Virus record (IMG/VR): IMGVR_UViG_3300047400_000175
Direction: 5' to 3' (one strand)
Length of the DNA stretch: 64,000 nt
DNA from: an uncultured virus (IMG/VR IMGVR_UViG_3300047400_000175)
Lineage: Duplodnaviria > Heunggongvirae > Uroviricota > Caudoviricetes
Below, piece after piece: positions 775-63,700 of this stretch. The position numbers and the translations under genes were made by a program. How positions within the stretch are numbered: the first letter of the stretch is position 1; the number at the start of each line of letters is the position of its first letter. Under the pieces are notes generated by a model. That model worked only from the letters and a program-made list of their open reading frames with translations. It was not told the DNA's origin and made no database searches.

Positions 775-1221
775 TCATATTCCTAATTGTTTCATTAATA
801 TTTTTAATTCTGATTTATTTTTAATTTCTCCCCTAAATAAACATTCATCATTTTCATACACAGAAAATATTCTATCTGATATTGTATATAATCCAGAATA
901 TTCCATCCCTCCCTTAGAAAACTCATATTCTATAAAATTATCATCTTCAAAATTTATTATTTTAAAATCTAATAAATTTGATAAACAACTTTCAATATCT
1001 TCTTTATTAAGATATTTAACTCTAAATAAATTTTCTTTTAATAGTTGATATTGATTTGTAAATTCTCGTAAATACAAATTTTCACCAATCATTGTTTTAA
1101 TCCAGCCATCAGGTGCTTCAAAATAAAAGTGCTTGTCTTTAGAATTATAAAATTCACATTCAAACCCAACGTGAAATTCTTCTATTTCTGGTATATAATA
1201 TTTATTTTCTTCAGTTTCCAT
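775..1221 (-). CDS. hypothetical phage protein
   Basis: 148-aa ORF, KYYIPEIEEFHVGFE N-terminus, in the - strand operon. Confidence 0.75.
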   Translation of the reverse strand: METEENKYYIPEIEEFHVGFECEFYNSKDKHFYFEAPDGWIKTMIGENLYLREFTNQYQLLKENLFRVKYLNKEDIESCLSNLLDFKIINFEDDNFIEYEFSKGGMEYSGLYTISDRIFSVYENDECLFRGEIKNKSELKILMKQLGI

Positions 1222-1607
1222 ATATAGTCTTTATCATTAAAATAATGTATTCTCTTCAAAAAATCTAAATAATTCTCATTAAATTTGAAATGTTTAACTT
1301 CCCAATTATGATAATATTTAATACAAGATTTATATGAATCAAAATACATTGTCTTTCCATTTAACATAAATCCAAATAGATTATGTTTTTTAATACAGGC
1401 TTCTGATTTAAACCAACCTGTTTCTAATATAGCAATTCTTAATGTTACTTCAGGAAAGTATATTTTTTGATATTCCATTTCTTCTTTAAGACATTTTGGA
1501 GATAATTCGCAATCATCTTTAAATCCAAATATAACCCATAAAAGAAATATAGCAACAGCAACAGCCATTAAAAATTGTATAATGTTTCCAAATTTTTGTA
1601 TATTCAT
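1182..1607 (-). CDS. membrane-anchored glucosaminidase-like (GH73-like) peptidoglycan hydrolase
   Basis: N-terminal TM helix; AILETGW catalytic-Glu motif, HNLFG and F.S...CI..Y motifs. Confidence 0.7.
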   Translation of the reverse strand: MNIQKFGNIIQFLMAVAVAIFLLWVIFGFKDDCELSPKCLKEEMEYQKIYFPEVTLRIAILETGWFKSEACIKKHNLFGFMLNGKTMYFDSYKSCIKYYHNWEVKHFKFNENYLDFLKRIHYFNDKDYIWKLKKINIIYQK

Positions 1608-5436: not shown

Positions 5437-6500
5437 TTATTTAATTTATTTATTCTATCAATAAATTCCTGGTTAATGTCACCAGGATAAGGTAATTCTT
5501 CAAAATTACCAGCTTCTGGAATAAAAAGTAAACCTAAAGACATTCCGTCTCTAGATAAACGATTTTTAATTATTTTTAACAATCTAAATCTTTCTAGTAA
5601 ATTATATTTCGCTCCTTTAATATTAATGTTGTATCCAAGACAACTTTCCATATCTAATTTATAAGCATTCATAATTCCTAGAACAACATCAGCATCGGTA
5701 TATGGGTTTCTAGAATCTTTAAAATCAGTTTGTTGAGGACTTATATCAACTCCTTTAAATTTAATACGTTCTATACTACTCAAACCATCATTAAATTGTT
5801 GTAACCAAATGATAGTCATACCAAATAAATTTCTAAGTTTGACACTATACTCAGAAATTTTGTCTAAATTCTCTTTCAATGTAAATCCACGTTCTAAATG
5901 AAGAAGAGCCAAGTGATCTCCGACAATTACATTATATTCATTTTTATTATGTAATTCAAATCCCTCTATTCTCTTTTTATCTTCTCCATTCTCATCCTTA
6001 TATTCACTGTATTTAAAAGTACCTCTATTTGACATATGTTGCCAAGCAGATTTATAAATCCCAGTAGGATTAGCAGACTCCCATATCCAATTTATTTTAC
6101 TCCAAAGTTTTTCTAAATCAGGAATTGTATTCTTTACAATTTCTAATTCATCTTCATTCAATCTAAAGTCACCAAGACCTTTTATTTTCTCAGGTGTTAT
6201 TATAATGTCATATTTTTGATGTATTAAGACACTAAGCCAATTAGCCTTCTTACTTACTTCATTAATCTCTAAAGAATAATAAAATACATTAATAGGCATA
6301 TTTTGTCTTTCGGCATCTTCAATAGCATTAATTAACATATAATCAGCTAGAGTGGTCTTACCACTACCGCTGTTACCTCCGAGAAGATAGTAACAAGATC
6401 TTTGTAAACCAAAGATATATTTATTTATTCTATTAAATCCATTGGAAAGTCCTTTATAAACACCAATTTGACCTTCTCTAACTCTTTCTTCAAATGTCAT
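5433..6500 (-). CDS. DnaB-like (SF4) replicative helicase
   Basis: Walker A GNSGSGKTT; YSLEI; DHL; QQFN; DADVV; IKNR. Confidence 0.85.
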   Translation of the reverse strand: MTFEERVREGQIGVYKGLSNGFNRINKYIFGLQRSCYYLLGGNSGSGKTTLADYMLINAIEDAERQNMPINVFYYSLEINEVSKKANWLSVLIHQKYDIIITPEKIKGLGDFRLNEDELEIVKNTIPDLEKLWSKINWIWESANPTGIYKSAWQHMSNRGTFKYSEYKDENGEDKKRIEGFELHNKNEYNVIVGDHLALLHLERGFTLKENLDKISEYSVKLRNLFGMTIIWLQQFNDGLSSIERIKFKGVDISPQQTDFKDSRNPYTDADVVLGIMNAYKLDMESCLGYNINIKGAKYNLLERFRLLKIIKNRLSRDGMSLGLLFIPEAGNFEELPYPGDINQEFIDRINKLNK

Positions 6501-7084
6501 ATTCTATTGTGTTCATTAAAATCAGAAACATCAGAAACATCATTAATTTCCTTTGCCTCATCAATATATCCTTCCCAATTTCTTTGATGTAAAAATGCAG
6601 GAAGAGCTTGTATAAATTCTACTGAATTACCTTCCTTTTTATCTTTAATATAAAGTTTAATACATTTAAGTATTAAATTATGTAAAGAAACATCTATCTT
6701 TACAGTATCTTTATACAGCTTCCTGCATCTAGCCATATCTGTATGTAACACTCTTTTAGCCCCATTTGGACCTTTAATGCTTTTAGGATATGTGTTTTTA
6801 AGTTCCTCAAACAATTTATCAAAATCAAATTCTTCTTTTAGAAATTCATTTTGAAATAATTCTGTTAATTTTAAGGAATTAAATGTAATTTGTTCATTGT
6901 TTAAAGGAACTAGATATTTTTTATTAACTAAGTTCTGATAAAATTGATAATTAAGTTGTTTACTTATTGCATATTGTTCTAACCATTTTTTATTAGAATT
7001 AAATAAACAAGATAATACAAAATATTCATCAAAAGTTAAATCAGAATTTAATAATTTAGAAACATCTACTGTTAATTCCTTCAT
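6497..7084 (-). CDS. putative replication initiator / helicase-loader-like protein
   Basis: F..L...YP and FL.QR.W motifs; directly upstream of the helicase. Confidence 0.5.
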   Translation of the reverse strand: MKELTVDVSKLLNSDLTFDEYFVLSCLFNSNKKWLEQYAISKQLNYQFYQNLVNKKYLVPLNNEQITFNSLKLTELFQNEFLKEEFDFDKLFEELKNTYPKSIKGPNGAKRVLHTDMARCRKLYKDTVKIDVSLHNLILKCIKLYIKDKKEGNSVEFIQALPAFLHQRNWEGYIDEAKEINDVSDVSDFNEHNRI

Positions 7085-20203: not shown

Positions 20204-20261
20204 CATCATTATCTAAAAATATGATTAATATAACAAGTAAATTAAAAATGAATATTAATCG

Positions 20262-20346
20262 TGCTCCTAGCAAGACTCGAACTTGCACAGCCCATAAGAC
20301 TACCAGATTTTAAGTCTGATGTGTTTACCAATTACACCATAGGAAC
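20262..20346 (-). tRNA. tRNA-Leu(TAA)
   Basis: GTTCCTA/TAGGAGC acceptor; TGGTA D-loop; CT-TAA-AA anticodon loop; long variable arm; TTCGAGT T-loop; no encoded CCA. Confidence 0.92.
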
Positions 20347-20381
20347 AAAAAATGGAAGCAAGTATTTCAGCCTTGCTTCCA
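20347..20381 (-). terminator. terminator-like hairpin between the tRNAs
   Basis: TGGAAGCAAG/CTTGCTTCCA stem plus TTTTT on the - strand. Confidence 0.55.
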
Positions 20382-20421
20382 CATGTTTAATAACTAATTA
20401 CGTATCACTGAAAATTAGTTG

Positions 20422-20493
20422 TAGTCTCATCAGGAATCGAACCTGAAATATAAGTTTAGAAAACTCATGTTATATCCTTTTAACTATGAGACT
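20422..20493 (-). tRNA. tRNA-Arg(TCT)
   Basis: AGTCTCA/TGAGACT acceptor; GTTA/TAAC D-stem; TT-TCT-AA loop; TCAGG-TTCGATT-CCTGA T-arm. Confidence 0.92.
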
Positions 20494-27220: not shown

Positions 27221-27415
27221 ATGAGAAAAAAAGTAAATATAAAAAAGGAGGTTAGTGTTAACAAACATTATTATATAGTTAATACTAATCCATTGATAAT
27301 TAATCAGATACAGAATTTCAAGGGTGAAAGACTTGTATCAAGAATGGAGAATATTCCAGATGAATTAAAGGAATATGTAATTGAAGGGTATAAAACTAAA
27401 GGAATGTATATATGA
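27221..27415 (+). CDS. hypothetical protein
   Basis: 64 aa; ATGA overlap with next gene. Confidence 0.6.
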   Translation: MRKKVNIKKEVSVNKHYYIVNTNPLIINQIQNFKGERLVSRMENIPDELKEYVIEGYKTKGMYI

Positions 27416-27840
27416 AATTAAAAATAGGATTTGACCCAGAAGGGTCTTGGTATAATCAAGCCTTCAGAGAAATAATGAAAGAAGCAACTCTAAATGAAAA
27501 TATTGAGATGTATATTGTAAGTAATAGTGTTGATAGTAATTTAATTACAGAAGCACAAGGATATTTACAACTTGATGACTCTCATACAATTAGATGTACA
27601 AGTATGGCTTTAATGATAGATGCCATACAAGTTAATAATATAAATATATTTATTGATGCTGATAACACAGTTGTGAAGGCTATTAATAGTATGGTACCAC
27701 TAAGTAATATACAAAATAATGTAACTGGTTGTCAAGCAATACATTATAATAATAGTTTAGTGGACGTTTATAAGATGCAATTAAAGCATTATACTTTATT
27801 GCAATTTTGGATAGGACAAATAGCTAAAAATTTAAATTAA
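27412..27840 (+). CDS. hypothetical protein, degenerate HAD-like fold
   Basis: KIGFDPEG (DxD-like), MYIVS and IFIDAD. Confidence 0.55.
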   Translation: MKLKIGFDPEGSWYNQAFREIMKEATLNENIEMYIVSNSVDSNLITEAQGYLQLDDSHTIRCTSMALMIDAIQVNNINIFIDADNTVVKAINSMVPLSNIQNNVTGCQAIHYNNSLVDVYKMQLKHYTLLQFWIGQIAKNLN

Positions 27841-45463: not shown

Positions 45464-45654
45464 AACTTTCAACAGCAAATTATTATAAACAAACTCCTAA
45501 AAAAATGAGAAAATTAGGAGATGGTTTATTAGGACTTTCTACATTACTTACATCATATGCTATAATAGATGAGTGGGGGAAATGCATACAAATAACGTCA
45601 ATGGTACTCGGAGTGCTTGGTAAAATTTTAACAAATTTCTTTTCAGATGAATAA
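45460..45654 (+). CDS. small 2-TM holin-like protein
   Basis: TPKK.RK.GD..L; two hydrophobic segments; GK.LTNFF. Confidence 0.65.
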   Translation: MKLSTANYYKQTPKKMRKLGDGLLGLSTLLTSYAIIDEWGKCIQITSMVLGVLGKILTNFFSDE

Positions 45655-46402
45655 TGTATACTATGTATATGTACATTATAAACTTAGTGATGGTACTCCT
45701 TTTTATATAGGTAAAGGTAAAGATTATAGACATAATTCTAAAAAGAATAGAAATAATTATTGGAAAAACATTGTAAATAAACATGGATTTATATCTCAAA
45801 AGTTAGTTGAAGATATAACAGAGAAGGAAGCATTCAGTGAAGAAATGTTTTATATTTCTTACTTTAAATTTTTAGGATTTAAATTATGTAATATGTCGGA
45901 CGGTGGAGAAGGTAATAATAATCCTTCAGACGAAGTTAGAAAAAAATTAAGTTTTATTGCTAAAAATATTTCAGATGAAACTAGAAACAAAATGAAATTA
46001 ACAGCTATGGGTAGGAGAGTTTCAGATGAAACTAGATTAAAGATGTCAATTAAACACAAGAATCCTTCAGTAGAAACACGACAAAAGATGTCAATGAGAA
46101 GTAAGGGAAGAAAACATTCTCAAGAAACTAAAAATAAAATGTCTATTATTAATAAAAATAGATCTAAAGAATTAGTAAAAAGAATAACTGATAAAAATAA
46201 AATACCCATTATACAATTGGATTTATATAATAATTTTATAAGTGAATGGGATTCTGCTACTGATGCTGGTAAAGCTTTAAAAATAACACCATCCGACATA
46301 AGCTGTTGCTGCAAAGGAAAGTATAAAAATAGATATAAAACAGCTGGCGGGTTTAAATGGAAGTATAAAAATAATGAAGTAACACAAACAGGAAATATTT
46401 AA
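45647..46402 (+). mobile_element. free-standing GIY-YIG homing endonuclease with NUMOD3 repeats and NUMOD1
   Basis: YYVY.H...FYIGKG...R; E; N..DGGEG; repeated S.ETR.KMS; I..CC.GK..TAGGFKWKY. Confidence 0.88.
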
Positions 46403-47082: not shown

Positions 47083-48939
47083 ATGTATAAAAAATTAAGT
47101 GTAAAAGATAGAATGGACTATATGTCCATGTATAAAAAAGCATATCCTAATAGTTCCTATAGGGATATGGTTGAGAGTTATAATGATTTAGATAAATATC
47201 CAGATGGAGGATCTACAGGTCCTCATAGAACATATAATATTAATGATATTCCAACAAAACAATTACCTCCATCTTCAGAGACTGTACAAACTCAATATCA
47301 AAAACCAGAAAATCCTTATTTAAAAGGTAACCTATTAGATTATCGTAATAATATTAATGCTGAAGAAAAAGCCAAAAGAGATTATGCAGAAAGTATTAGA
47401 TTAGCACAAGAACAAATACTTAAAGATAAAACTAAAAAATTTATTAATTCACCAGAGGGTAAGAAATATTTAGAAGAGGGAGTTAATAATAGTATAAATA
47501 ATCCAGTATTTAAAGCTGTTACATATGCTACACCTATTGGTACAGTAGTTGGAGGTATAGAGGGAATAGCAAATTTAGCGCCTGATTTATATAACAATAA
47601 TTATAAAAAGGCCATTATTGATGCTGCAAGTATGATTCCATTAGTTGGTAAAGGAATACCAAATCTTTATAAATATAATCCTTGGGCATTCAAACCTAAT
47701 CCTGAAGCTTATTATAGAATGTTAGGAAATGAAGGATTTGCAGATGCTATGGAAAGTGGAGTAATTAGAGCTAATCCAAAACTTAAACAATTTGATGATG
47801 TTTATTTTAGTATGAAACATCCTTGGGATGGAAGAAATTATGGATATGTTACAAGATCTGGAGAACCTATAGGAGGAGTTGGTTATAAAGGACCTTATAT
47901 GGCAGAATTAACAGGACAAGAATTAAATCATCCAATATCTTCATTTCCAAGAGCTAATATGGCTCAATCAAAAGTACCAATACCTATAGAAAATCCTGGT
48001 GTAAAATTCTATAAACAAGATTGGCTAAGAGGATATAAACCTGTAGAAGTTCCTGGACAAGTTTCTGCAGGAACACTTCCTCCTCCTGTTCAATCAGGAC
48101 TTAATCCATTAGCTATAGCTGATCAATTAACTCCAATGTTACCTCATCCTATGAGGATACCTTTAATGGGAGCAACTGTAGAAAATATGGGACCTTTTAC
48201 AGGAAGTCCTTTAAACTTTATTCCAGGATACGGTGTAAATTTAGGAAGATCAGGATCTGCATTTAGAAAGTTTGGTAATACCATGGAACATGTAATGGAT
48301 ACTAAAACATTAAGTCCAAAAGGAGGTGCAGCATTAAGAATGGGAAAAGATCAAATTGTTAATGAAGGAAACTGGGCAGCTTTAGAAAAACCAGATGAAA
48401 ATTATAAAGGTGTATTTGCTGCACAATTTGATTTTAATAATCCAGGCACAGAATTAGGATATGTTAATCCTAGTAATAGAAATGGTGTATTGATTGCAAC
48501 AAAGTCTGGAGAAAAACTTGTAGATATTCCAATACAAGATGAAGGATTAAGTTTTCATAGACGACTTCCTTTTTCTAATAGATATATTCCTATAGATAAA
48601 CAAAAGTTATTAAATGATAAGTTTCAATGGTCTACACAAGGAGGGCATCTTCAAAGTTTATTAGAAAAACATGGGTATGGTCTTGGATATGCTGGATGGT
48701 TATCTGCTCTTGGATATCCTCAAATGATGGATGCTTATAAAAAATATGCAATAGATCCAATTAAAGAAAAAGTACAACCTTATCTTGATAAATATTTAAA
48801 AAATAAAAAACAAGGTGGTGTAATAAAAGATGATAGAGGACAATGGGCTCATCCTGGAGAGATTAAAGTATTTAACTTAGTACCTCCAGCAATAGGAACA
48901 AGTTTATATCTAAAATCACAACAAAATAATAAAGAATGA
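47083..48939 (+). CDS. modular cargo/effector-like protein
   Basis: 618 aa; YPDGG and KKQGG motifs; DDRGQWAHPGE; mosaic composition. Confidence 0.7.
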   Translation: MYKKLSVKDRMDYMSMYKKAYPNSSYRDMVESYNDLDKYPDGGSTGPHRTYNINDIPTKQLPPSSETVQTQYQKPENPYLKGNLLDYRNNINAEEKAKRDYAESIRLAQEQILKDKTKKFINSPEGKKYLEEGVNNSINNPVFKAVTYATPIGTVVGGIEGIANLAPDLYNNNYKKAIIDAASMIPLVGKGIPNLYKYNPWAFKPNPEAYYRMLGNEGFADAMESGVIRANPKLKQFDDVYFSMKHPWDGRNYGYVTRSGEPIGGVGYKGPYMAELTGQELNHPISSFPRANMAQSKVPIPIENPGVKFYKQDWLRGYKPVEVPGQVSAGTLPPPVQSGLNPLAIADQLTPMLPHPMRIPLMGATVENMGPFTGSPLNFIPGYGVNLGRSGSAFRKFGNTMEHVMDTKTLSPKGGAALRMGKDQIVNEGNWAALEKPDENYKGVFAAQFDFNNPGTELGYVNPSNRNGVLIATKSGEKLVDIPIQDEGLSFHRRLPFSNRYIPIDKQKLLNDKFQWSTQGGHLQSLLEKHGYGLGYAGWLSALGYPQMMDAYKKYAIDPIKEKVQPYLDKYLKNKKQGGVIKDDRGQWAHPGEIKVFNLVPPAIGTSLYLKSQQNNKE

Positions 48940-49643
48940 ACAATACAACATTAAATAAATTAGTCTGGCAATGTCTAGAAATGGCCAATGGAGGTTCTGT
49001 ACCAAACGATAGTCAAGCAAGCTATGAACTTGTAAGACAATGGGTTGAAGAACAGAGAGCAATATTAATATCTCAAAGTATCTCTAAAGGAGATGATATT
49101 AATGATTCCTGGATACAATATATAAATTGTGTAGATTTAGAACAAATTGATAGTTCTTCTTGTCCTTGTGAAGTAACAAGTGGTTGTTTAGTTTTAAAAA
49201 GTAAACAAAGATTACCAAGTACAATAGATACGTGGGAAGATAATAATATCAATAGTGTTGTAACACCTTTAGGTGTTGTAATATCTAAAACTAATCCAGT
49301 TAAATCAAGATATGATAAATATAATAAATATACTGGAGAAAAGAGAGCATGGTTTATTAAAGATGATTATCTTTACATTTTAAATGAAGAAATGCTGGAA
49401 TCAGTAAGTGTATCTGGAGTATTTGAATATCCTATGGATGTAGCTAGATTTACTTGTAATGGACAACCTTGTATGACAGAGGACAGCCCATACCCAGTAA
49501 GTTTAAACTTAATGTCTAATATTATAGACATAGTAGTTAAAACAAAGATAATACCATTTATGCAAAGTTTTGCTAGTATGACAAATGATGCTAATGGATT
49601 GAATGCTAAGCAGTTACAACAAGATAAACAAACTAAACCATAA
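48936..49643 (+). CDS. tail ring protein
   Basis: W....RA.LI; Q...C..LE..D..C.C; KY.KYT; V.GVFE.P; YP. Confidence 0.75.
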   Translation: MNNTTLNKLVWQCLEMANGGSVPNDSQASYELVRQWVEEQRAILISQSISKGDDINDSWIQYINCVDLEQIDSSSCPCEVTSGCLVLKSKQRLPSTIDTWEDNNINSVVTPLGVVISKTNPVKSRYDKYNKYTGEKRAWFIKDDYLYILNEEMLESVSVSGVFEYPMDVARFTCNGQPCMTEDSPYPVSLNLMSNIIDIVVKTKIIPFMQSFASMTNDANGLNAKQLQQDKQTKP

Positions 49644-49644
49644 T

Positions 49645-50133
49645 ATGGAAAATAAAGGAATAAAAAGATGTTTTGGTAATAAAGGTTCTGTATGGAAATA
49701 TAAGAAAACTAAAGGTCCACTAGAAATGTATAAATTCTATTTAGGCAAATGTAAAGAATCAAAGAAGAAGCCTGTTAAATATACAGAATTTAAAAACATT
49801 ATAAATTTTTGTAATAAAGAAGTGGTCAGACAAGCATTACTTGGTAATGTAATTAAATTACCAAATAGAGCAGGATACTTACAAATAATTAAAAAGCATA
49901 GAGTATTCAGTTCTCCTACAATTAGAAAACATGTTAATTGGGGGCAAACTTATAAACATAATAAAATATTATATTATGATGATAAATTTATTTATAAATG
50001 GGTGTGGATTAAAAGAACATCTATTTTAAAAAATAAAACATTTTTTAAATTTAAACCTGCAAGAGATACAGCAAGAGCAATTGTTGGATATGTAGGTGAT
50101 GGACAACAATATTTTGGACAAATAAGAAAATGA
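49645..50133 (+). CDS. IHF-like basic protein of the crAss tail module
   Basis: KLP...G.L.I.K; VNW..T; F.FKP.R; ATG (MENKG) preferred. Confidence 0.65.
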   Translation: MENKGIKRCFGNKGSVWKYKKTKGPLEMYKFYLGKCKESKKKPVKYTEFKNIINFCNKEVVRQALLGNVIKLPNRAGYLQIIKKHRVFSSPTIRKHVNWGQTYKHNKILYYDDKFIYKWVWIKRTSILKNKTFFKFKPARDTARAIVGYVGDGQQYFGQIRK

Positions 50134-50852
50134 TATACAAATATACAAGTATTAAGACTGTATTAGCTAAAATATACAGAGATTTACAATTAAATCAAGA
50201 ATTACCAGAAAGCGATGTAATTGAATGGATTGCTGAGGCACTATCTATGATAGGAGCATATTCTCAATATGAGGAAATATCAGATTGTTTAGAATTATCT
50301 TCTGGTAAAGCTAAACTTCCATGCAACTTTGAGGCACTAGTAGACATTAGTTATAAGGGACTTCCTGTTTATTGGGCAACTAACACCAATCAAACAAATT
50401 ATCAATGTAAAGATTGTAGAATACCTAGATGCATTGGTAGTGAATGTTTATATACATTCTATATAAATGACAGTTATATTATTTCTAATATAGGACTAGA
50501 TGATAATACAAATGAAAAACTTTGTATTGTGTATAACGGAATACCTGTAGATGAGGATGGTTATCCTAGAATACCTGATGATGTGTATTATATAAAAGCT
50601 CTAACTGCTTATGTAACATACATGTTAGATAGGGCAAATTGGAGAAAAGGTAGAGTTAATGATAAAGTAGTTGCTTCATCTGAACAAGATTGGTTATTTT
50701 ATGTAAATTCTGCAAGAGGTTCTGCAAATCTTCCTAATGTTCAACAATTAGAAAGTCTTAAAAATACCATTAAAAGATTATTTAGTCCAGCTAATGATTA
50801 TAAAACTGGATTTAGTAATTTCAATAAACCAGAAAAATTTAATTTGAAATAA
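50130..50852 (+). CDS. tail tubular / ring protein
   Basis: S...V.AK.YRD; EW..EAL..IG; Y.G.P.D.DGYP.IPD; W..Y...ARG. Confidence 0.8.
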   Translation: MIYKYTSIKTVLAKIYRDLQLNQELPESDVIEWIAEALSMIGAYSQYEEISDCLELSSGKAKLPCNFEALVDISYKGLPVYWATNTNQTNYQCKDCRIPRCIGSECLYTFYINDSYIISNIGLDDNTNEKLCIVYNGIPVDEDGYPRIPDDVYYIKALTAYVTYMLDRANWRKGRVNDKVVASSEQDWLFYVNSARGSANLPNVQQLESLKNTIKRLFSPANDYKTGFSNFNKPEKFNLK

Positions 50853-53800
50853 TGGCTGAAGAACAAAATAATTCATCTCCTGTAAAACTCTTTAACAAAG
50901 GTATGAACCAGGATGTAGATAAAAAATTACTACAAAACGGTTTTTACATTGAAGGACATAATATACAAATAATTTCCGATAGTACAGGTACATCATTTGA
51001 TATTACTAATACTAAAGGTAATGTATATAAACTCCCTATTCCTAAAATACCACAAGTTCAAGAAATTAAACTAGGAACAATTAATCCTAATGATAAATGT
51101 ACAATTACTATTGCTGGTAATACAGGATCACTTATAACATTTACTGATACTACTACTTTACAAGATATATATACTAATATATCAAACATTACTGGTTTTG
51201 GAATAACATTCAATGCTTATATAAGCGGTACACATATTGTAATTTATTCATTAATTGGAGGTTTGTATATTGGGGATATTGTCATAACTTACAGTGTAGG
51301 AAGTGGAGATTTAGTACCAAAAACTGATTACATACCAGAACAACCAGATAAAAGGCAAGGTCCTTACAATATTATAGGAAGTGTTGAATTAAGAGGAGAT
51401 ATTTATTTATATACAACTTGTTGTACAGATAAAAATCCTGGAGGACATAATTCTAGTTTACTAACAGATGCTAGTTCTGTAGGACAGATTTGGAAAATGA
51501 GTTATGATAAAATAACTCTATCTGTTACATTAACATTAGTATATAATCAATACATAGACTTTTCAACATATTGGGGAATAGCACCAACAGCAACAATAGG
51601 AAGATATGAAAATGATGCTATTAAAAGAATTTATTGGACAGATAATTTTAATAAAATTAGACAATTAAATATTGCTAACTCTAATTTATTAGCATTAGAT
51701 GTTACACAATTAGATATTGTTCCAGGAGTAGATTTTGATATTCCTATAATGACTAATAGAAATGGTGGAGGAGGATCTAAACCAATAGGTGCTTATCAAT
51801 GTGCTTACAGATATAAAAATACAGGAGGAGCAATTACTGGATGGAGTAATCTTTCTAATATCATATATTTAACACAATATGATGATAAGAATGGTTCAGA
51901 CAACTTTTTAAAGAATGTAGGTAATGATTCTGGTACTGGAACAGACCAAACAATTACTTGGACATTCCCCAACTTAGATAGAGATTTTAATACAATAGAA
52001 GTTGCTGTAGTTAGAAGGATATCTTCAACAGCATCTCCAGATATATTTATAGTTGCTGAGTTACCTATTGTACAAGATACTTTATCTTACACATATACAG
52101 GCAATGAAGTACCTATTGGTGTAACTCTTGCTGAGTTTTTAAACCCTGTAGGAGTATTTACACATTGTAAAACAATAGGTAGTAAAGATAATAGACTTTT
52201 TGTTGCTAATGTTAGAACAGAACAACAAGAGTTAGATTACGATGCTAGAGCTTATAGATGGAATAGTGATCCTAAAATGTCAATAGTTAATAATGGAGTC
52301 ACTGAGACATATACATTAGCTACATTAGACACAATACCAGATGATGCAGATGCTATTAATCCTTCATTATATCAACCATCTCCTACAGCAGGATTTATAT
52401 ATAAATCTGATGGTGTTACATTAGGAGGGGAAGGATTACACATTTCTTATGAGTTTTTAACAATGGCTACAGAGTGTGAGGCAAGTACAACATCAATTAA
52501 TTATGGTATTGTTAATGACCAATTAAGTCCTTGGCGATGGACAAACCCAAACTTTGATACTAACAATATAACACTAGATGTTAAATCTATTGAAAATAAT
52601 AACACAGAATATTATCAACAATATCCTAATAACTTTGCACAAGGTAAATGTAATGCAGGGTTAAAATATAATAGTACATCTTCATTACTAAGAGGTTATC
52701 AAAGAAATGAAGTTTATAGATTTGGTATTCAATTTTATGATAAATCTAAAAAACCGTATTATGTAAAATGGATTGGAGATATTAAATTCCCTGATTATTG
52801 GGAGGATAATAATAATCCACTTTACGAAAATGGCACAACAGATCCAATTAGTGATTTTAGATTAGTATATAATAAATCACATAATGGTTATAGGCAAGCA
52901 TTTGTTAGAGAATTAGGTATTAAATTTACAGTAAAGATTCCAGATAAATACATACCGTTGATAGATGGATATTCTATTGTTAGGGTTAAAAGAGAGCAAA
53001 AAGACAAAACAATTATTGCTACTGGGATTATTAACCCAGTAACCAATGATAATGATAATCCAGAACAATTATATATAACTTCATTGTATAATAATACATT
53101 TAGTCCATTTAATGATGCTGGAAATTTTACAAGTTCTCCTACAGATTTTGAAAATAGATGTTTTTTTACAAGTTCTAATCCGTGTGATATAAATCAACCA
53201 GTGGTATTCGGTAATGGAGATACTCTAAAAATAAAAGGTATATTAAGTGAAGTTAATTCAGCACACAGTATGTATTTTACATTTGGTGGTTATCCTAGTG
53301 TAATAAATGATTATTTTAAATATTATACAATGAATAATCCAAGTGGTTATTCAACTGAAGTAACAATAGACAATTCATTATACTTGAGTCCAGCTGGTGT
53401 TGGAACAGACAATGAAGGGATTATTAATAGAACAGTTAATAATTTTGATATAGGAGCTAGATGGGATGCTAGCTTAGGAATGTATGTTAGAGATACCACT
53501 GTATCATTTTCAATAGGTAATCCAATTACTTATATAAGAATGAGTAGTGCAATAGATTGGGATGGTACAGTAAATAATTTTTCTAAATACTTTGTAACAA
53601 TAGAAAGATCGTTACCTGATCAATATGGAGGGAATACATTTGTAGCAAGGACTAATAACCAATACCTATCCTGTCAGCAATATAGACCAATTAGAAATAA
53701 CTCAGTAAACGATACTTTCTATTTATTTGGAGGAGATACATGGGTACAAATGTATGACTCATTAAGATGGGCTTGTAATTTTGGAAATATTAGAACAGCC

Positions 53801-55243
53801 GTACATATGACAGGAGGAAACGCCTTGTATCCATTCTCATGTGTGCAATTTTTTCCAACAGAGACAACAATAAATACTGAATTAAGATATGGAGGATATG
53901 TTAATAGATTTTATACAAATCCAGGTAGTTTGCCAGGGGAATACTATGAAACATATAGTTCTAATGGAGTATTTGCTTTAGAAAATGATATACAAGTATA
54001 TTTCCCAAAACCATATCCATATATTAATAATGACATATTTGATAATAGATTCTATGCTTCTGAAATTAAGATTAATGGAGAATTAACTGATAATTGGGGA
54101 GTATTCAAACAAGAGAATTATTGGGATGTAGAAGGTATTTATGGTCCAGTAAATGCTATGAGAATAATGAAGGACAAAATGTATTTCTGGCAAAATAGAG
54201 CTTTTGGTATTATGGAAATAAATCCAAGGGTTGTATTACAAGATCAAAATAATACAGCATTACAACTTGGTACTGGTAATGTATTACAAAGACATGACTA
54301 TATCTCTACAGAAGTTGGACTACAACATCAATGGGGAGTTACTTGGAGTGCTTATAAACTATTTTGGTTAGATGTAGCTAATAGAAAATTCTTTAATTAT
54401 TCAGAAGGACAGCCAGTAAGTCCAAGCTCTGATATTAAAGGAATGTTTTCTTATTTTCAAAATCATTTAAAATATAATATTAATAATTTTGATAAGCCAA
54501 TATTTTATGATACCAAACTAGAAGGAATTAATGGAGTTAGACTTGTTTATGACTTTAAGAATGAAGAAGTGATATTATGTGTTACAGATGTATTAGATAA
54601 TGAAACTAAAGACTATTGGACTCTTATATATAATGATAAATTAGACGCATGGGTAAGCTTTAAAAATGCCCAAATAAGCACATTATTTCCAACAGATGGT
54701 TATAAGATATTCTCAACACATATAAACAAAGGCACAGATTGTGATATTTACATGGAGAATGTGGGGGATTATGGAAGATATTATGGTGTTATTAGTCCTA
54801 GTAAATTAAGTTTTGTAGTCAATGAAGGTCCAACAGTTACTAAAACATTTGATAATTTATCACTAGATGTACAAAGTTTAAATCAGAATAAAGTAAATCA
54901 ATATACAGATTTTTGGAATGCTATTAGAGTATATGATGCTTCGCAAAATACTGACTATCAAAACTTTGTAGTTAAAACTAGTTATAATACTCCTACTAAT
55001 TGGAATGTTAACAGGAAAGAAAGAACTTGGAAACTAGCGATACCTCGTAACAGAGTTATTAATTTAGGTTCAGAAAGTCCTGACATATTTAATTCTAGTA
55101 ATTTATCTAGTCCAGATAATAAACCTTATGGAGATAGGATGAGAGATAAGTACTTTGTAGTCGATTTAGTATATGATAATTCAGATAATAATTTGCTTAT
55201 TACTAATAATATTACCCCTGGTATCAGACAGTCAGATAGATAA
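50852..55243 (+). CDS. tail stabilisation / muzzle protein
   Basis: 1463 aa; F.KGM..D; IYWTD..N..R; GYQR.EVYRFGI; GGDT; K.FDN; R.ER.W; RMR..Y. Confidence 0.85.
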   Translation: MAEEQNNSSPVKLFNKGMNQDVDKKLLQNGFYIEGHNIQIISDSTGTSFDITNTKGNVYKLPIPKIPQVQEIKLGTINPNDKCTITIAGNTGSLITFTDTTTLQDIYTNISNITGFGITFNAYISGTHIVIYSLIGGLYIGDIVITYSVGSGDLVPKTDYIPEQPDKRQGPYNIIGSVELRGDIYLYTTCCTDKNPGGHNSSLLTDASSVGQIWKMSYDKITLSVTLTLVYNQYIDFSTYWGIAPTATIGRYENDAIKRIYWTDNFNKIRQLNIANSNLLALDVTQLDIVPGVDFDIPIMTNRNGGGGSKPIGAYQCAYRYKNTGGAITGWSNLSNIIYLTQYDDKNGSDNFLKNVGNDSGTGTDQTITWTFPNLDRDFNTIEVAVVRRISSTASPDIFIVAELPIVQDTLSYTYTGNEVPIGVTLAEFLNPVGVFTHCKTIGSKDNRLFVANVRTEQQELDYDARAYRWNSDPKMSIVNNGVTETYTLATLDTIPDDADAINPSLYQPSPTAGFIYKSDGVTLGGEGLHISYEFLTMATECEASTTSINYGIVNDQLSPWRWTNPNFDTNNITLDVKSIENNNTEYYQQYPNNFAQGKCNAGLKYNSTSSLLRGYQRNEVYRFGIQFYDKSKKPYYVKWIGDIKFPDYWEDNNNPLYENGTTDPISDFRLVYNKSHNGYRQAFVRELGIKFTVKIPDKYIPLIDGYSIVRVKREQKDKTIIATGIINPVTNDNDNPEQLYITSLYNNTFSPFNDAGNFTSSPTDFENRCFFTSSNPCDINQPVVFGNGDTLKIKGILSEVNSAHSMYFTFGGYPSVINDYFKYYTMNNPSGYSTEVTIDNSLYLSPAGVGTDNEGIINRTVNNFDIGARWDASLGMYVRDTTVSFSIGNPITYIRMSSAIDWDGTVNNFSKYFVTIERSLPDQYGGNTFVARTNNQYLSCQQYRPIRNNSVNDTFYLFGGDTWVQMYDSLRWACNFGNIRTAVHMTGGNALYPFSCVQFFPTETTINTELRYGGYVNRFYTNPGSLPGEYYETYSSNGVFALENDIQVYFPKPYPYINNDIFDNRFYASEIKINGELTDNWGVFKQENYWDVEGIYGPVNAMRIMKDKMYFWQNRAFGIMEINPRVVLQDQNNTALQLGTGNVLQRHDYISTEVGLQHQWGVTWSAYKLFWLDVANRKFFNYSEGQPVSPSSDIKGMFSYFQNHLKYNINNFDKPIFYDTKLEGINGVRLVYDFKNEEVILCVTDVLDNETKDYWTLIYNDKLDAWVSFKNAQISTLFPTDGYKIFSTHINKGTDCDIYMENVGDYGRYYGVISPSKLSFVVNEGPTVTKTFDNLSLDVQSLNQNKVNQYTDFWNAIRVYDASQNTDYQNFVVKTSYNTPTNWNVNRKERTWKLAIPRNRVINLGSESPDIFNSSNLSSPDNKPYGDRMRDKYFVVDLVYDNSDNNLLITNNITPGIRQSDR

Positions 55244-58054: not shown

Positions 58055-59929
58055 ATGCCAAATGCATTTAATACACTGATTGAACCTTCACAGTATGTCA
58101 GCCAAGTAGTTCCATTGCCTTTAAATGAAATAATTCAAATGGGGGCTATGAAACAGCAACATCGTGATGCTACATTAGCAAATATTGAAGATACCAAAAA
58201 CATTCTTAGTGTTAAATATGATCCACATAGAAAAGGTGTGGCCGATGAATTATTATCAAATTATAATCAAAGACTTGATGATATAGCTAATGATTTCTTA
58301 AAGAATGATACTAATACAGCTAATTTAAAATTATCAAGAATTAGAAGAGATTTTCAACAGGACCCAACTAGGATAGGATTAGAAAATTCCTATAATTCAT
58401 GGGTATCATATTTAAAAAACACAGAAGAAAATAAAAAGCAGGGAAAATATGATAATATTAGTGGTTATGATTCTTATTTACATGATAAGGAACAACACTC
58501 TATAAAAGAGTTTTCTCCATTTAATTATTCAGGAGATTACACCTCTGAAGATATTGATAAGGAAGCCAAATCTATAATGGGTAAAATAGCTGAAGATGGT
58601 TCTGATACAAAGGGTATGAAAACAGATAAACAAGGAAATTTATTAGTAGACGACAATGGCATGTACCATGATTATACAACAGCTGGTAATGGGGTTTCTG
58701 AACCAAAATTAATTACTTTAGCAGGAATGAAAGCTGAAGATTTTTTAAAGAGTAATGCAGGAAGATATTTTATAGATAGGTACACTGGGGGACATGTTGG
58801 GAATTATAATGATTTTGATGATAAAACTAAATTAATATTAAAAAATTTAGCAGCTAATCAATTAATTCATTCATCAGCAGAACAAATAGGATGGAAAACA
58901 AAAGGCTGGGATGAAGGACATTTCTTACCTGAATATATTGCTAAAGATAAACAACCAAAAGTTGATGATACAACACACTTTGGCGAAGATACACCAATTA
59001 TTAATATAGTGACTAATGCATTTGATATTGATAAAATGGTTAAAAAGGAGAGATTTGAAGTATCAGGACAAGGTAATCCTGGAAGTCCATTATTAATGGG
59101 AACTAGTACTGGTGCTAAAGCAAAATCTTTAGGTATAGGTTATGGTAAACTAGATGAAAAAGAGCAAAAAATATATGAAGGTATAGCTAAAAATGTATTT
59201 AATGTATCAGATACTAAATCATTAACTGGTCCGAAATTAGATGCTTTAAATAAGAAAATCAAAGACTATTTGATCAATATATCTACTCAAAATTTATCAA
59301 CATCAGCTAGATCAATACCTAATAATCAATCATTTGACGGAAGTGATAAAAAGGGGGCAGAAGGATTAACTGAAGCAATATTTGGGACAAGTAGAATAGG
59401 TGATGCCCCATTAACAGGTAATTATATTAATAGGGATTTTTATGTGGCAAGTGAAGGAAAAACATATTCTGGTGAAGAATTTTATAATAAATTCTTGAGC
59501 GGTCTTCCTAAAGGAACTACTATTAAAATAATTAATCAATTCTCTCCAAATAATCCATTTGTAGATTTATCTGGCGGTGAAGAGAAATTTGCAAGGAGTT
59601 ATCAAGTATCTGTTGGTGGGAAATCAGTGATTATGTCATCAGCTCCACACGAATGGAAAGAAAAGATCGGTGTAGATGGTAAATCTTATTATGTAGATGG
59701 AACAGTTGATGATAGACTAATTAATCATATTTGGAAAACAAGTATACTCCCAGACAAACAAATAGAAATGTCCGTTATTACAAAAGATAATAAACCAACA
59801 CAAGCACATGTGGTTAACTTAGCTAATGGAGAGTATGAGATGACAATACCACTAGATCATTCAGTGATACATGGAGAAACTCCGGAGGAATTATTAAATA
59901 ATTATCATGAGTATTTAGCGGGAAAGTAA
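58055..59929 (+). CDS. virion cargo protein
   Basis: YVSQ.VPLP N-terminus typical of crAss cargo; ends GCG GGA AAG TAA. Confidence 0.8.
   Translation: MPNAFNTLIEPSQYVSQVVPLPLNEIIQMGAMKQQHRDATLANIEDTKNILSVKYDPHRKGVADELLSNYNQRLDDIANDFLKNDTNTANLKLSRIRRDFQQDPTRIGLENSYNSWVSYLKNTEENKKQGKYDNISGYDSYLHDKEQHSIKEFSPFNYSGDYTSEDIDKEAKSIMGKIAEDGSDTKGMKTDKQGNLLVDDNGMYHDYTTAGNGVSEPKLITLAGMKAEDFLKSNAGRYFIDRYTGGHVGNYNDFDDKTKLILKNLAANQLIHSSAEQIGWKTKGWDEGHFLPEYIAKDKQPKVDDTTHFGEDTPIINIVTNAFDIDKMVKKERFEVSGQGNPGSPLLMGTSTGAKAKSLGIGYGKLDEKEQKIYEGIAKNVFNVSDTKSLTGPKLDALNKKIKDYLINISTQNLSTSARSIPNNQSFDGSDKKGAEGLTEAIFGTSRIGDAPLTGNYINRDFYVASEGKTYSGEEFYNKFLSGLPKGTTIKIINQFSPNNPFVDLSGGEEKFARSYQVSVGGKSVIMSSAPHEWKEKIGVDGKSYYVDGTVDDRLINHIWKTSILPDKQIEMSVITKDNKPTQAHVVNLANGEYEMTIPLDHSVIHGETPEELLNNYHEYLAGK
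59920..59926 (+). promoter_or_regulatory. -1 ribosomal frameshift heptamer G_GGA_AAG
   Basis: Correctly phased X_XXY_YYZ immediately before the stop; -1 frame open to 60780. Confidence 0.8.
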
Positions 59930-60780
59930 ATACCTCTGCTACAAGTGTTAGTAAGCCAGAGGTTATTAAAGAAACACAACCTATTATAAAAAAAGAAATT
60001 TCCAAACCAGTTGCTATAAATAAGGCAGAATCTACAGTTTTACCAACAACTACAGAAAAAGCAAAGCCAGTTGTAATAAAAAAAGAGGTGCCAGTAAACA
60101 CAAAGGCAAATATACCTGTTACTACACAACCTGCTATAAAGTCAGTTACACAACCAGTAAAAACAGTACCTGTTGTTAGTAAGATTACGAATAAACCTAC
60201 AGCAGCATCACCAGTACAGATAGCTAAAACAAATATTCCAGAAAGTAAAGTTGGGCCAATAACACTACCTAGTAGTATTCCATCAGATGTTGCTACATTA
60301 ATATCTCAACATAAACAAAATCCTAAATGGGGAGATTACAAAGGTAATTACTTTGTATATTCTAAAGAAAATAGTACATTTTATGTTCTAAATAATAAAC
60401 ATCAGATTATTGATAGTATTATAGGAGGTAGAGGTATGGATAAAGGAGATGATAAAAATACATTTTTAGAAAGTTCACAAGATGGTAGAAAAACTACACC
60501 TTCTGGAAATTATGCCTTTAAATTCATTGATAACACTAAAGATGAACAAAAAGATTACTCCTCTCCATTTTATGGATTTAATAATGATCAATATGGTCAA
60601 TTAGGGGTACATGGGATATATAAGGGAAATTTCAATTATAGAAAACAAATACTTGATGATCCTAAAGTAAAACAAAAATTATTTTCTTATGGTTGTATAA
60701 ATATACCAAAAGAATTTCTATCTAAATATCCTCCAGTTATAGGGGATAGTTTATTTATAACAAAGGAGCCTAAAATATAA
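59926..60780 (+). CDS. frameshift extension: P/T/V/K linker + L,D-transpeptidase (YkuD)-like domain
   Basis: Frame open from 59911 with no ATG before the domain; TPSG.Y, GVHG and SYGCIN motifs. Confidence 0.78.
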   Translation, partial: VNTSATSVSKPEVIKETQPIIKKEISKPVAINKAESTVLPTTTEKAKPVVIKKEVPVNTKANIPVTTQPAIKSVTQPVKTVPVVSKITNKPTAASPVQIAKTNIPESKVGPITLPSSIPSDVATLISQHKQNPKWGDYKGNYFVYSKENSTFYVLNNKHQIIDSIIGGRGMDKGDDKNTFLESSQDGRKTTPSGNYAFKFIDNTKDEQKDYSSPFYGFNNDQYGQLGVHGIYKGNFNYRKQILDDPKVKQKLFSYGCINIPKEFLSKYPPVIGDSLFITKEPKI

Positions 60781-60786
60781 TATATA

Positions 60787-63700
60787 ATGCCAGATATAAA
60801 AGATATACAAAGTAGTTTTAATAATTACTTATTAAGAGGAGAGAAACCAGTTGAGACCACAGATCAACCATATATTATGGAACATTCTGACAAAAGTCAG
60901 TACGATGAAGGATTTGTGCCTGATAGATATGCTGATGATCCTAACTCAAATGAAAAGAATTTAGGATACTATAGGGGTGAAAAACAACCATGGTATGACA
61001 AGGCTGCTAATGGAGTAGTTAATCTTGCTGGAAGAGCCTTAACATCTGGGGCAGAAGGAATACTAAATCCATTCATAGGCACTTTCTATGCACTAGCAGA
61101 TGGTAAATTATCTTCATTTATAGATAATCCATTTACTAGACTAGCTGATGATGTAGATAAGCAAATTAAAGAAGCTGTACCATTTTATTCTACAAGAGCA
61201 GAAGAAAGCGCGCATGGTTTAGAAAAGTTATTATATGGTAATACTTATTTTAGAGATGTTTTAGATGGTGTTGGTTTTACTTTGGGGGCTATGGCTACAG
61301 GTAGTGTATATAATAAATTAATAAGCGCTATTGGAGAATCCGCATTGATTGGTAAAGCTGGAGAATATGTTAATAAATTAAACACTATTGAAAATTCTAC
61401 AGATAAAGTACAATATATAATTAATCAAAATACTCTAAGAGCAATTAAAGACGGTTCTAAACGAGGCTTAGTTGCTGGATTTACAGCAAGTGCTGAGGCT
61501 GAACAACAAGCTAGAGGTGACAAGGATCAATTTGTACAATATCAACTAGCTAAAATTAAAGCTGCTGGCAGAGAACCTTCTCAAGAAGAGTTAGCTAAAA
61601 TTGAGGATATGGGCAATGACTTGGCTTTACATAGTTATGCCTTTAATATGCCAGTAATATCACTAGATAATTACATTGTATTTGGCAAAGCTCTATTTGG
61701 TAATAAGGCCACAGATGTAATTAATTTAAAGAATTTAGGAGAAGGTATTACAAGAGAAGCTGGATTAGATGGTGCTTATAAAGCTGCGGAAAACACCTTT
61801 TGGGACAAAACTAAACCATATAGAAAAATAGCAGAACCAATGTTAGCCGAGGGTTTTTTCCAAGAGCAAACTCAGTATGCTATTTCTCAAGGTACAAATG
61901 ACTACTATAATAAAAAATATGAATCACCAGAAGCTGCTAGTTTTTTAAACTCATTTGCTAAAGGTATTTATGATGCCTATGGAACTAAAGAAGGTTGGGA
62001 TCAGGGTATTATAGGCGCATTATCTGGTGGCTTAACTGGTAATGTTACAACACTAATTGGAAAGGGTACAGGAGCCTACAAGAAGTCATCTAATGTAGTT
62101 CCTGATGATTTGCAGAAATTATCTACATTAAAGCAATATAAAGATTTAGTGTCTATGATTAATAGACATTCCAACATTGTACAAGACCAGAAAAATGCTG
62201 TTAATAACAATGATACATTCTCTTACGAGAATTCTAAGAATGATGGATTTATAAATTATGTTTATACCAAATTAAAATATGAAAGAGGTGAAGACCTGCT
62301 AGATGAATTAAAACAGTTCTCTAGTATGTCAGAAGTGGAATTTAAATCTAATTTTGGTAATGAATTATCTAAGGATGAAATATCACAAACTAAACAGTCT
62401 GTTAGTGAATTTGTTAATGATAAGATAGATAAAGTTAAAAAAATACAAAGGACATTTGATGCTGTTCATGAGAAATTTCCAAATGCTTCTGAGGCCAATA
62501 AAGAAAGACTTGCTTATAGTAGTTTAACTATCGATAATGCTAAATCTAGAAAGCAAGCATTAAATAAAGAAATTAATGAATTAATTAGAAAAAATGCTCC
62601 CTCTAATGAATCACTAGTGTTGCTAGGTAATGATTATTTACACACATCTAAAGAGGGTAGAGAATCTTATATAGAGGCATTAAATAAATCCAATATTAAT
62701 CCTTTAGATATTGAAGGTATTAAATCTAAAATATCAGATATTAATAAATTAGAAGAAAGAGAAAATCAATTTGTTAAGGAGTATCATGCTCTTACTAAAG
62801 AGGACTATCAGAATAAACTAGACAAAGCTGATAAGAAAGTTGAGGCAAAAGTCACTCAAACTAATACTCCCAAGGAAAACCCATTTGATTCGCATACATC
62901 AACAACACAAGAAACCCCTGTAGATACAGAATCTGAACTAACTCAAGAACAAGCTAGTTCTATGGGTATGGACTTTGGTAATACACCAAAGACAGATTGG
63001 CATTCATTAATAAATAATGCACAAGGTGAGAAGGAACTTAATGCTGTACAAGACCAAATAATTAAATCTGGTGAGGACAGTGTGGAATTATCAAATGCTA
63101 TTGGTAAGAAACGTGAGTTTTTAAATAAACAAAAAGAATTTAATACTAAATATAACTCTCTAAATGAGAAATCTACAACAGATGAATTAAAATCTGTTGG
63201 GAATGATTTAAATACTAATTATAAAGAGCATTATAAAGAAGAGCACATATCTCATTTAAGAGAATTATACAATAATGCTAAAAACAGAGAGGATGTAGCT
63301 AAATCTCAAACACCAACAAGAAAGAGTGAAAAAACTTCATTATTCTTTTTTAATAGATTTGCTGGTACTTCAGCACATCCAGTAGATATTGACGCTACTA
63401 GACTACTTTCATCCATTAATTTAAGTAATCCTAAACATTTAGAGAAATTAATACTAACTATTAATCCTTATAAAGGCCCATATGGACACAATCAAGAAAT
63501 ATCTTTACATTATATCAAGAATGATGGAACTAAGATGTTTCTTGGATTTCTAATTGATGGAACTTCTGAAAAAGCAACTGCTGATGTTTTAAATATTGGA
63601 GAAAAAGAAAAATCTAAATTATTTATTAATCATTTGTTGTCTTTGAACAAGTCTGAGTTTACAATGAATGAGTTAGTAAATTCTGGTTTGATTAATTTAA

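Follow-up and report, generated by a model that had tools for sequence, protein, structure and literature searches.

The 64,000-nucleotide (nt) stretch of DNA analysed here, called the window in what follows, is IMG/VR record IMGVR_UViG_3300047400_000175 and derives from an uncultured freshwater virus which, judging by its gene content, is a crAss-like phage (Crassvirales). One of its genes encodes a 624-amino-acid (aa) protein and ends where a second open reading frame (ORF), placed in the -1 frame and lacking a convincing start codon, begins; this second ORF encodes a domain with a predicted YkuD fold. We consider it most likely that the two are expressed as a fusion through -1 ribosomal frameshifting. 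Slippage at the heptamer G_GGA_AAG (59920-59926) would let a share of the ribosomes evade the TAA stop codon of the 624-aa gene, and the slipped ribosomes would read on in the -1 frame, through a flexible linker of 108 residues and into the YkuD-fold domain, which is predicted to act on peptidoglycan. One gene would in this way give two products, a long form of 908 residues and a short one of 624; that the long form is the minor one, as the initial annotation had it, is a guess. The slip would be promoted by a hairpin located 5 nt downstream and, possibly, by slow decoding of the adjacent stop codon (our literature search gave no usable account of an adjacent stop stimulating -1 slippage, and the argument does not rely on it). 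The same product would result whether the Gly and Lys tRNAs slip in tandem or the Lys tRNA slips in the P site while the stop codon occupies the A site. The long form would then be packaged together with the rest of the cargo proteins and, at infection, be extruded through the tail, and its Cys/His enzyme might locally trim or cut stem peptides in the host wall, which would allow the ejection channel to form. The sequence features named in the initial annotation are all real, and several of them are much rarer than chance would have it; what we infer from them is the frameshift itself, its efficiency, the incorporation of the long form in the virion, and the activity and substrate of the enzyme.

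The junction between the two frames

The elements of the locus are the following (positions are those of the window).

58055..59929, + strand: ORF of the 624-aa protein (0-frame product), in the position of cargo protein 2, flanked by a C1-like gene (896 aa) and a giant gene resembling gp47
59920..59926, + strand: slippery heptamer G_GGA_AAG, of the X_XXY_YYZ type and in the register of the 0 frame ((59920-58055) mod 3 = 2), spanning the last two sense codons
59927..59929, + strand: 0-frame TAA stop codon, abutting the heptamer
59932..59963, + strand: hairpin, candidate frameshift stimulator, with 11 pairs, two bulges, a stability of -11.6 kcal/mol and a 5-nt spacer from the heptamer
59926..60249, + strand: K/V/T/P-rich linker of 108 codons in the -1 frame, the first 54 of them 5' of the sole candidate start
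60088..60090, + strand: GTG, the sole ATG, GTG or TTG codon of the -1 frame ahead of the domain; rival start, from which the 230-aa product of the ORF list would be made
60250..60780, + strand: YkuD / L,D-transpeptidase-fold domain and its stop codon, in the -1 frame, assigned from homologs, a fold model and catalytic residues

The locus displays the three elements expected of a bacterial-type -1 frameshift: a heptamer in the proper register, a startless but coding-like -1 ORF, and a downstream structure. The 624-aa gene ends with GCG (59918-59920), GGA (59921-59923), AAG (59924-59926) and TAA (59927-59929), and the heptamer lies where the initial annotation had placed it. The -1 frame is closed by a TGA at 59908-59910, 10 nt 5' of the heptamer, and is open from 59911 up to the TAA at 60778-60780; it opens only three codons before the heptamer. 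It had also been claimed that this frame is stop-free between 59911 and 60780 and has no ATG ahead of the domain; we found both to be true, the first ATG lying inside the domain. After the slip, 284 codons are available (59926-60777), and the predicted length of the long form (624+284, i.e. 908 aa) is correct. GGGAAAG is present five times in the window, and the copy at 59920-59926 is the only one in the slippery register of a listed gene. More generally, sites of the X_XXA_AAG type occur in frame at 10 out of 16,687 codons (0.06% per codon), and G_GGA_AAG is found among them just this once. Since the two frames overlap over six codons only, simple arithmetic from the rate in the window puts the chance of an X_XXA_AAG site falling in the overlap at about 0.4%. 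This particular heptamer is called highly shift-prone in E. coli in the corresponding passage of the review by Atkins et al. (2016; PMC5009743).

The hairpin begins within the 5-9 nt downstream of the motif where a stimulatory structure is expected, and none of 200 dinucleotide shuffles of its sequence folded as well (z -3.1). A search of Rfam gave no family at the junction, and one sub-threshold match to a small RNA on the opposite strand. A scan for sigma-70-like promoters and intrinsic terminators, which does not cover the promoters of crassviruses, found none between the two frames on the + strand. Transcriptional slippage was rejected as an explanation because the homopolymer runs, three G and three A, are too short.

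The linker provides a further argument. Scored with the codon usage of the window itself, its first 54 codons (59926-60087) reach +28.9 bits, compared to 23.9 ± 7.9 for in-frame 54-codon segments of genes, and none of 1,056 off-frame segments of the same length attained 28.9 bits; off-frame segments of 59 codons without a stop are themselves rare (14 of 27,748). The linker is made of K, V, T, P, I and S in like proportions 5' and 3' of the GTG at 60088, as one would expect from the initial description of a continuous P/T/V/K-rich linker across this codon, and local alignments with the linkers of homologs extend upstream of it. By these measures, the -1 frame of 59926-60087 is coding, or was so until very recently, and it offers no start codon.

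As to the GTG itself, all 51 confident genes of the window start with ATG, preceded by A/T-rich sequence without a Shine-Dalgarno motif. The GTG has a G at -1 and another at -3, each of which is seen at 1 of the 51 true starts. Its context score is 1.28, compared to 6.28 ± 3.8 for the 51 ATG starts, and 9.3% of random positions score as well. It therefore looks like a poor start, yet a possible one. Recoding of TGA as Trp was rejected too, as it opens no upstream start in the -1 frame. On the - strand, the antisense of the linker is stop-free for 160 codons (59823-60305; 92 aa if counted from a GTG), which is most likely a by-product of the low complexity of the linker.

The appended domain, its relatives and the carrier gene

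The 284-aa product has no Pfam match at E <= 0.1, and therefore no direct match to the YkuD family (PF03734); searches of four proteins of the locus against Pfam and PHROGs likewise gave no family. That the domain is nevertheless YkuD-like, as initially annotated, emerges from distant homologs, from a fold model and from the conserved His and Cys. An exhaustive phmmer search with the domain collected 68 representative proteins of 109 to 2,922 residues, 13 of them at E <= 1e-30. Fifty of these were scanned with Pfam (the 18 others are the self-hit P0005, P0030, P0034, P0037, P0043, P0050, P0053, P0056, P0058, P0062 and P0065-P0072), and PF03734 was found at E <= 0.001 in 12, among which 8 pass the curated cut-off. 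Some of the scanned homologs add SLT and LysM domains, which bind or cut the wall. Two composite proteins may be mentioned here: P0019 (956 aa) has a histidine-phosphatase domain together with a YkuD-type enzyme, and P0041 (529 aa) has SLT, YkuD and LysM domains. In an alignment of 25 sequences, His121 and the motif Ser146-x-Gly148-Cys149 are invariant; the predicted catalytic codons are at 60610-60612 (His) and 60694-60696 (Cys). The AlphaFold2 model of the domain is a confident one (predicted local distance difference test score, pLDDT, 92.1; predicted template modelling score, pTM, 0.88). Foldseek matched it to 72 PDB chains at E <= 0.001, and those listed at the top are almost all enzymes of the L,D-transpeptidase fold: the L,D-carboxypeptidase Csd6 comes first, and LdtMt1/2, YkuD, Pgp2 and Bd1075 are also among the best matches; the entry at rank 2 is that of a fused Zn-dependent amidase/peptidase. 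The domain finds its best BFVD matches inside phage proteins of 920-1,232 residues. On the strength of the model and the alignment, the appended domain is a divergent member of the YkuD/L,D-transpeptidase fold that retains its predicted catalytic His and Cys.

Members of this domain family follow an architectural rule: an N-terminal part, then a P/T/K/V linker, then the domain. A profile search with the domain profile retrieved seven related loci, three from IMG/VR and four from JGI metagenomes. In five of the seven, the ORF of the domain has an ATG at most 37 codons from the opening of the frame, and the other two are cut by the end of the contig. At all three IMG/VR crassvirus loci, the domain belongs to a large protein of 1,008-1,242 aa (or longer) encoded after the muzzle gene, either directly 3' of it (L001 and L003) or after a 132-aa ORF (L002); in L003 the carrier gene is followed by a gene of the CARGO2 family. 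In L001 and L006, a C1-like segment and the domain are in a single ORF. From these sequences, the module is a recurrent in-frame passenger of crassvirus proteins in the cargo position; for this reason a fusion to a cargo protein would be expected here as well, and a free linker followed by the domain would be odd. Those homologs which stand alone either have their N-terminus immediately ahead of the conserved LPxDV helix or begin with a hydrophobic segment, and a linker with nothing N-terminal to it, as in the 230-aa product, has no counterpart among the homologs. The two nearest full-length homologs, P0006 and P0007, share a conserved domain of about 135 aa at their N-terminus (residues 1-135), in front of the linker and enzyme; Pfam has no match for it, and BLASTP gave none between it and the five proteins of the window with which it was compared.

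Regarding the phage, the initial annotation spoke of a podophage, and the Pfam families agree with this: the window has matches to Crass_capsid (2.3e-129), to tail ring proteins 1, 2 and 3/4, and to the muzzle protein (50852-55243; 4.9e-149). The genes 3' of the muzzle gene are ordered as in Bacteroides phage crAss001, where gp44 (muzzle) is followed by gp45 (cargo 1), gp46 (cargo 2) and gp47. The 896-aa protein encoded 5' of the 624-aa gene has a 60-residue motif in common with gp45 (E 2e-9), and the giant protein starting at 60787, 3' of the -1 ORF, matches gp47 (E 2e-30). As its neighbours are gp45-like and gp47-like and follow the muzzle gene in the crAss001 order, we place the 624-aa gene in the position of cargo protein 2: it lies after the muzzle gene, 3' of the gene in the cargo-1 position and 5' of that for the giant protein of the gp47 type, which is RNA-polymerase-associated. 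Both gp45 and gp46 of crAss001 were identified as virion proteins by mass spectrometry; the relevant part of the virion study likens them to the ejection proteins of T7 and expects them to be ejected and to contribute to a trans-envelope channel (PMC10172136).

The name 'cargo protein' given initially is therefore supported by gene order and is a positional assignment, with no homology to gp46 found. The 624-aa protein and its three homologs do not match PF25712 (crAss_CARGO2), even at E <= 10, whereas the controls did, gp46 itself at 6e-219 and the 470-aa protein of L003 at 1e-9; against gp46, the 624-aa protein gave an E-value of 0.27 with BLASTP and a probability of 2.6% with hhalign. Two leads point to cargo protein 2, and they are leads only. 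A protein-language-model search with the 624-aa protein ranks a CARGO2 cluster seventh (177 features shared, score 0.91). Its AlphaFold2 model is poor (pLDDT 46), and the Foldseek matches of this low-confidence model in BFVD are mostly crassvirus proteins of about 400-730 aa, at template modelling scores (TM-scores) of only 0.15-0.26; among them is a 597-aa protein of CrAssphage cr55_1 encoded two genes 3' of the muzzle gene of that phage. Word-index searches do not return the full-length 624-aa protein because its 90%-identity cluster is represented by P0077, a 238-aa ENA call identical to it over 201 residues and divergent thereafter, which probably comes from a chimeric or frameshifted contig.

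Some other features of the window can be recorded here. In the middle of the block of structural genes, a 251-aa ORF (45647-46402, + strand) has the NUMOD3/NUMOD1 motifs typical of homing endonucleases. In the same block, 48936..49643, which encodes ring protein 2, shares 41 nt (49603-49643, + strand) with 49603..50133; this overlap is far larger than those of other pairs, and the start called for the second ORF may be wrong. At 20261-20493 (- strand) lie the phage tRNA genes Leu(taa) and Arg(tct), both for A-ending codons, and there is no tRNA-Lys gene.

Weighing of the alternatives

Several observations weigh against a programmed frameshift at this place. In-frame heptamers of any XXXYYYZ type, including generic A/T-only ones near stops, are common in this genome of 28% G+C (170 over 16,687 codons), and four other genes have an A/T heptamer near their stop and, after it, a long ORF in the -1 frame; two of the four ORFs enter the next listed ATG-started gene (1182..1607 and 6497..7084) and the other two are in 27412..27840. 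It is in E. coli that A_AAG is documented as slippery, whereas the host is here probably one of the Bacteroidota and may decode AAG with a dedicated tRNA. The hairpin is moderately unusual, given that 2.4% of 12,180 segments of 49 nt from the same arm are equally stable. Further points come from the comparison with relatives. None of the 68 domain-bearing proteins has an N-terminus resembling the 624-aa protein, and when proteins of 343-1,092 residues were searched, no homolog of the C-terminal half of the latter was detected. No relative with the same junction (heptamer, hairpin and frame relation) was retrieved: IMG/VR, scanned with one protein at a time (the 624-aa protein, the domain, P0003, P0006, P0007 and P0075), gave no locus, and the seven related loci contain neither a homolog of the 624-aa protein (by tblastn) nor an out-of-frame arrangement. 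Profile searches gave nothing with the subfamily profile A4 in IMG/VR or in the genome collection, and nothing with the domain profile A1 in the latter. GenBank phages had no match to the 624-aa protein, to the product containing the domain or to the DNA, and neither gene is present in the nearest virus record (G001, 19.5 kb). Finally, the three closest relatives of the domain (P0008, P0073 and P0074; 57-63% identity) are gene calls of 166-180 aa, possibly enzymes that stand alone, and gut crassviruses do encode small separate proteins of a related fold (the DUF5675 protein of cr55_1, and cr116_1). The first of these, a free-standing 153-aa 'transpeptidase catalytic domain protein' (L009:4172-4633; DUF5675, 5.8e-29), adjoins a reverse transcriptase gene in a block of tail genes and belongs to a different family of related fold.

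The last two points favour the first of three alternatives, which we hold to be unlikely but worth serious consideration, namely that these are two ordinary genes. The domain would be translated from the GTG at 60088, unless a still rarer near-cognate codon is used, into a free protein of 230 aa with a flexible tail at its N-terminus; the coding-like stretch upstream would be the leftover of a recent rearrangement, and the heptamer and the hairpin would be there by coincidence. Gene callers do choose this GTG, the 230-aa product being on record on 40 contigs (34+6) and the 624-aa product on 28. Because its leader is A-rich, the score of the GTG falls within the range of true starts, the lowest of which is at -3.9, and other structural genes are separated by gaps of 112-183 nt. 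On the other hand, no confident gene of the window uses GTG, G at -1 and G at -3 are each seen at 1 of the 51 starts, and the 54 upstream codons score as real coding sequence. A free linker of 58 residues, with neither a partner domain nor an export signal, is unparalleled among the homologs. The two-gene arrangement also needs a heptamer of a rare class (0.06% per codon) and a hairpin of the 2.4% class to coincide precisely where the two frames overlap. As for the short relatives, their calls look truncated rather than genuine, because in the alignment their supposed initiator M takes the place of a conserved residue (Leu for P0008 and P0073, Ile/Val for P0074) inside or at the first helix (LPxDV...L); internal TTG or GTG codons were probably taken for their starts. 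This suggests that the phages encoding these relatives also have no proper start for the module.

Another possibility, which appears to us distinctly improbable, is that a fused cargo-enzyme gene was cut in two when a G3A4 run really lost one base; its enzyme module would then be silent or decaying, or else made through adventitious slippage at a ratio that is not under selection. One added A does restore a single frame, indels favour homopolymer runs and leave slippery-looking remnants behind, and our searches brought no support from conservation for a programmed site. However, the domain has no internal stops and has kept every residue that is invariant across the 25 aligned sequences, no unsplit fused relative is found among the 68 domain-bearing representatives, and the hairpin would again have to be a coincidence. 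Moreover, the same junction recurs in sequencing runs dated 2011 to 2025 and originating from several studies, and it is therefore a stable arrangement and evidently a fit one. A split of this kind merges in practice with the frameshift proposal if the long form is still being made by slippage.

That the junction is real and stable in nature is established by its occurrence elsewhere. The 901-base stretch around it was detected in 17 public aquatic or freshwater runs from eight studies, and all of its sampled 31-mers were present in 10 runs from five studies, some of which may be the source sample. A contig from a run dated 2011 (X14) bridges 59502-60174, and one from a run dated 2015 in another study (X15) bridges 59540-60045, each with 0 differences and 0 gaps; pieces from two more runs (X16 and X17) do not bridge the junction. 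All contig pieces from the four runs are 99+% identical, the population sampled by public runs shows no variation at the junction, and because of this uniformity of the population no substitution pattern can be read. A sequencing or assembly error hiding one continuous frame of 908 codons, to which a single missing A would indeed give the same appearance, is accordingly very improbable, because separate assemblies from separate runs carry the identical junction and because a run of three A is not error-prone.

Frameshifting, by comparison, accounts at once for the linker that is coding yet startless, for the presence of a rare heptamer in the sole place where it could act, for the hairpin and for the architectural rule observed among the relatives. 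With two ordinary genes, three of these would have to be put down to coincidence and an atypical start would have to be accepted.

Significance and comparison with known systems

Three things were already known: the production by frameshifting of long forms of phage virion proteins, the presence of wall-degrading domains on ejected podovirus proteins, and the use of YkuD lytic domains by phages. If our reading of the sequence is right, the novelty would lie in the recoding of a Crassvirales gene, in the addition of an enzyme instead of a decoration domain, and in its being carried by an ejected cargo protein. A literature search on crAss-like phages found no account of recoding in Crassvirales, the text examined treating frameshifting in general terms, and the publications matching Crassvirales together with transpeptidase look unrelated by their titles and abstracts. 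In the main text of the crAss001 virion study, the word 'peptidoglycan' has 0 occurrences (PMC10172136). YkuD is rare among the catalogued phage lytic catalytic domains, with 10 entries in the PhaLP table as given in that source (PMC8310338).

The locus and its in-frame relatives point to a YkuD-fold enzyme carried on cargo proteins as a tool by which crassviruses might open the wall of Bacteroidota, and suggest that one crassvirus lineage may set the dose of this enzyme by ribosomal slippage. It is quite conceivable, although we would stop short of calling it probable, that this is both the first described case of recoding in Crassvirales and the first programmed -1 frameshift which places a wall enzyme on a set fraction of an ejected cargo protein, dosed per virion by translation; the phages encoding P0008, P0073 and P0074 may share it, which would make it a lineage-wide alternative to constitutive fusions. 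Virion isoforms made by frameshifting would in that case include, besides those with decoration domains, one in which an enzyme is added to an injected protein, and the locus would illustrate a problem of annotation, in which a GTG-started call of 230 aa hides a product of 908 aa.

The heptamer of the junction, GGGAAAG, is the slip site of the lambda G/GT pair itself. The comparison with lambda gpG/gpGT made in the initial annotation is justified as far as the heptamer goes; it does not extend to the genomic context, which is here one of crassvirus muzzle, cargo and RNA-polymerase genes. In lambda, G/GT lies between the genes for the major tail protein and the tape measure, and its products are not in the virion; here, we deal with the cargo module of a podovirus-like phage which has no tape measure, and the product would be expected inside the virion. 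Low-level -1 frameshifting near the 3' end of lambda g, and the use of G_GGA_AAG for g-t frameshifting in the archaeal virus HCTV-5, are reported in the passages of the recoding review that concern these viruses (PMC5009743).

Parallels are also offered by the frameshift-extended capsid or tail proteins described in the same source for T7 (10A/10B), T3 (capsid), Lactobacillus phage A2 and Listeria phages A118, A500 and PSA. As in these, a slip near the end of a structural gene would generate a second, C-terminally extended form from one mRNA. Unlike them, where Ig-like or other non-catalytic decoration is added to capsid or tail-tube proteins, the extension would here consist of a 284-residue linker and enzyme, and the carrier would be an internal, ejected protein (PMC5009743).

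With the in-frame crassvirus carriers (L001, L002, L003 and L006; P0010-P0028), the locus shares the domain family (35-48% identity), the P/T/K/V-type linker and a location in the block after the muzzle gene. These carriers are single ATG-started ORFs of about 1,000-1,250 aa at, or next to, the cargo-1 position, whereas in the window the module comes after the gene in the cargo-2 position, out of frame and startless. Wall-degrading domains are also known on podovirus proteins that are ejected ahead of the DNA, namely the SLT domain of T7 gp16 and the lysozyme domain of phiKMV gp36. Those are constitutively fused glycosidases; the present enzyme would be of the Cys/His L,D-transpeptidase/carboxypeptidase fold, and its fusion would depend on recoding. 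Finally, the domain has the His...Ser-x-Gly-Cys motif of Csd6 (Helicobacter pylori), Pgp2 (Campylobacter jejuni), Bd1075 (Bdellovibrio), LdtMt1/2 (Mycobacterium tuberculosis) and YkuD (Bacillus subtilis), and its model matches these enzymes with a Foldseek probability of 1.00 (E 1.6e-6 to 1e-4; TM by query 0.41-0.54). It differs from these bacterial enzymes in sequence, with 11-19% identity, and in the possession of an extra N-terminal LPxDV helix that is conserved in the phage family.

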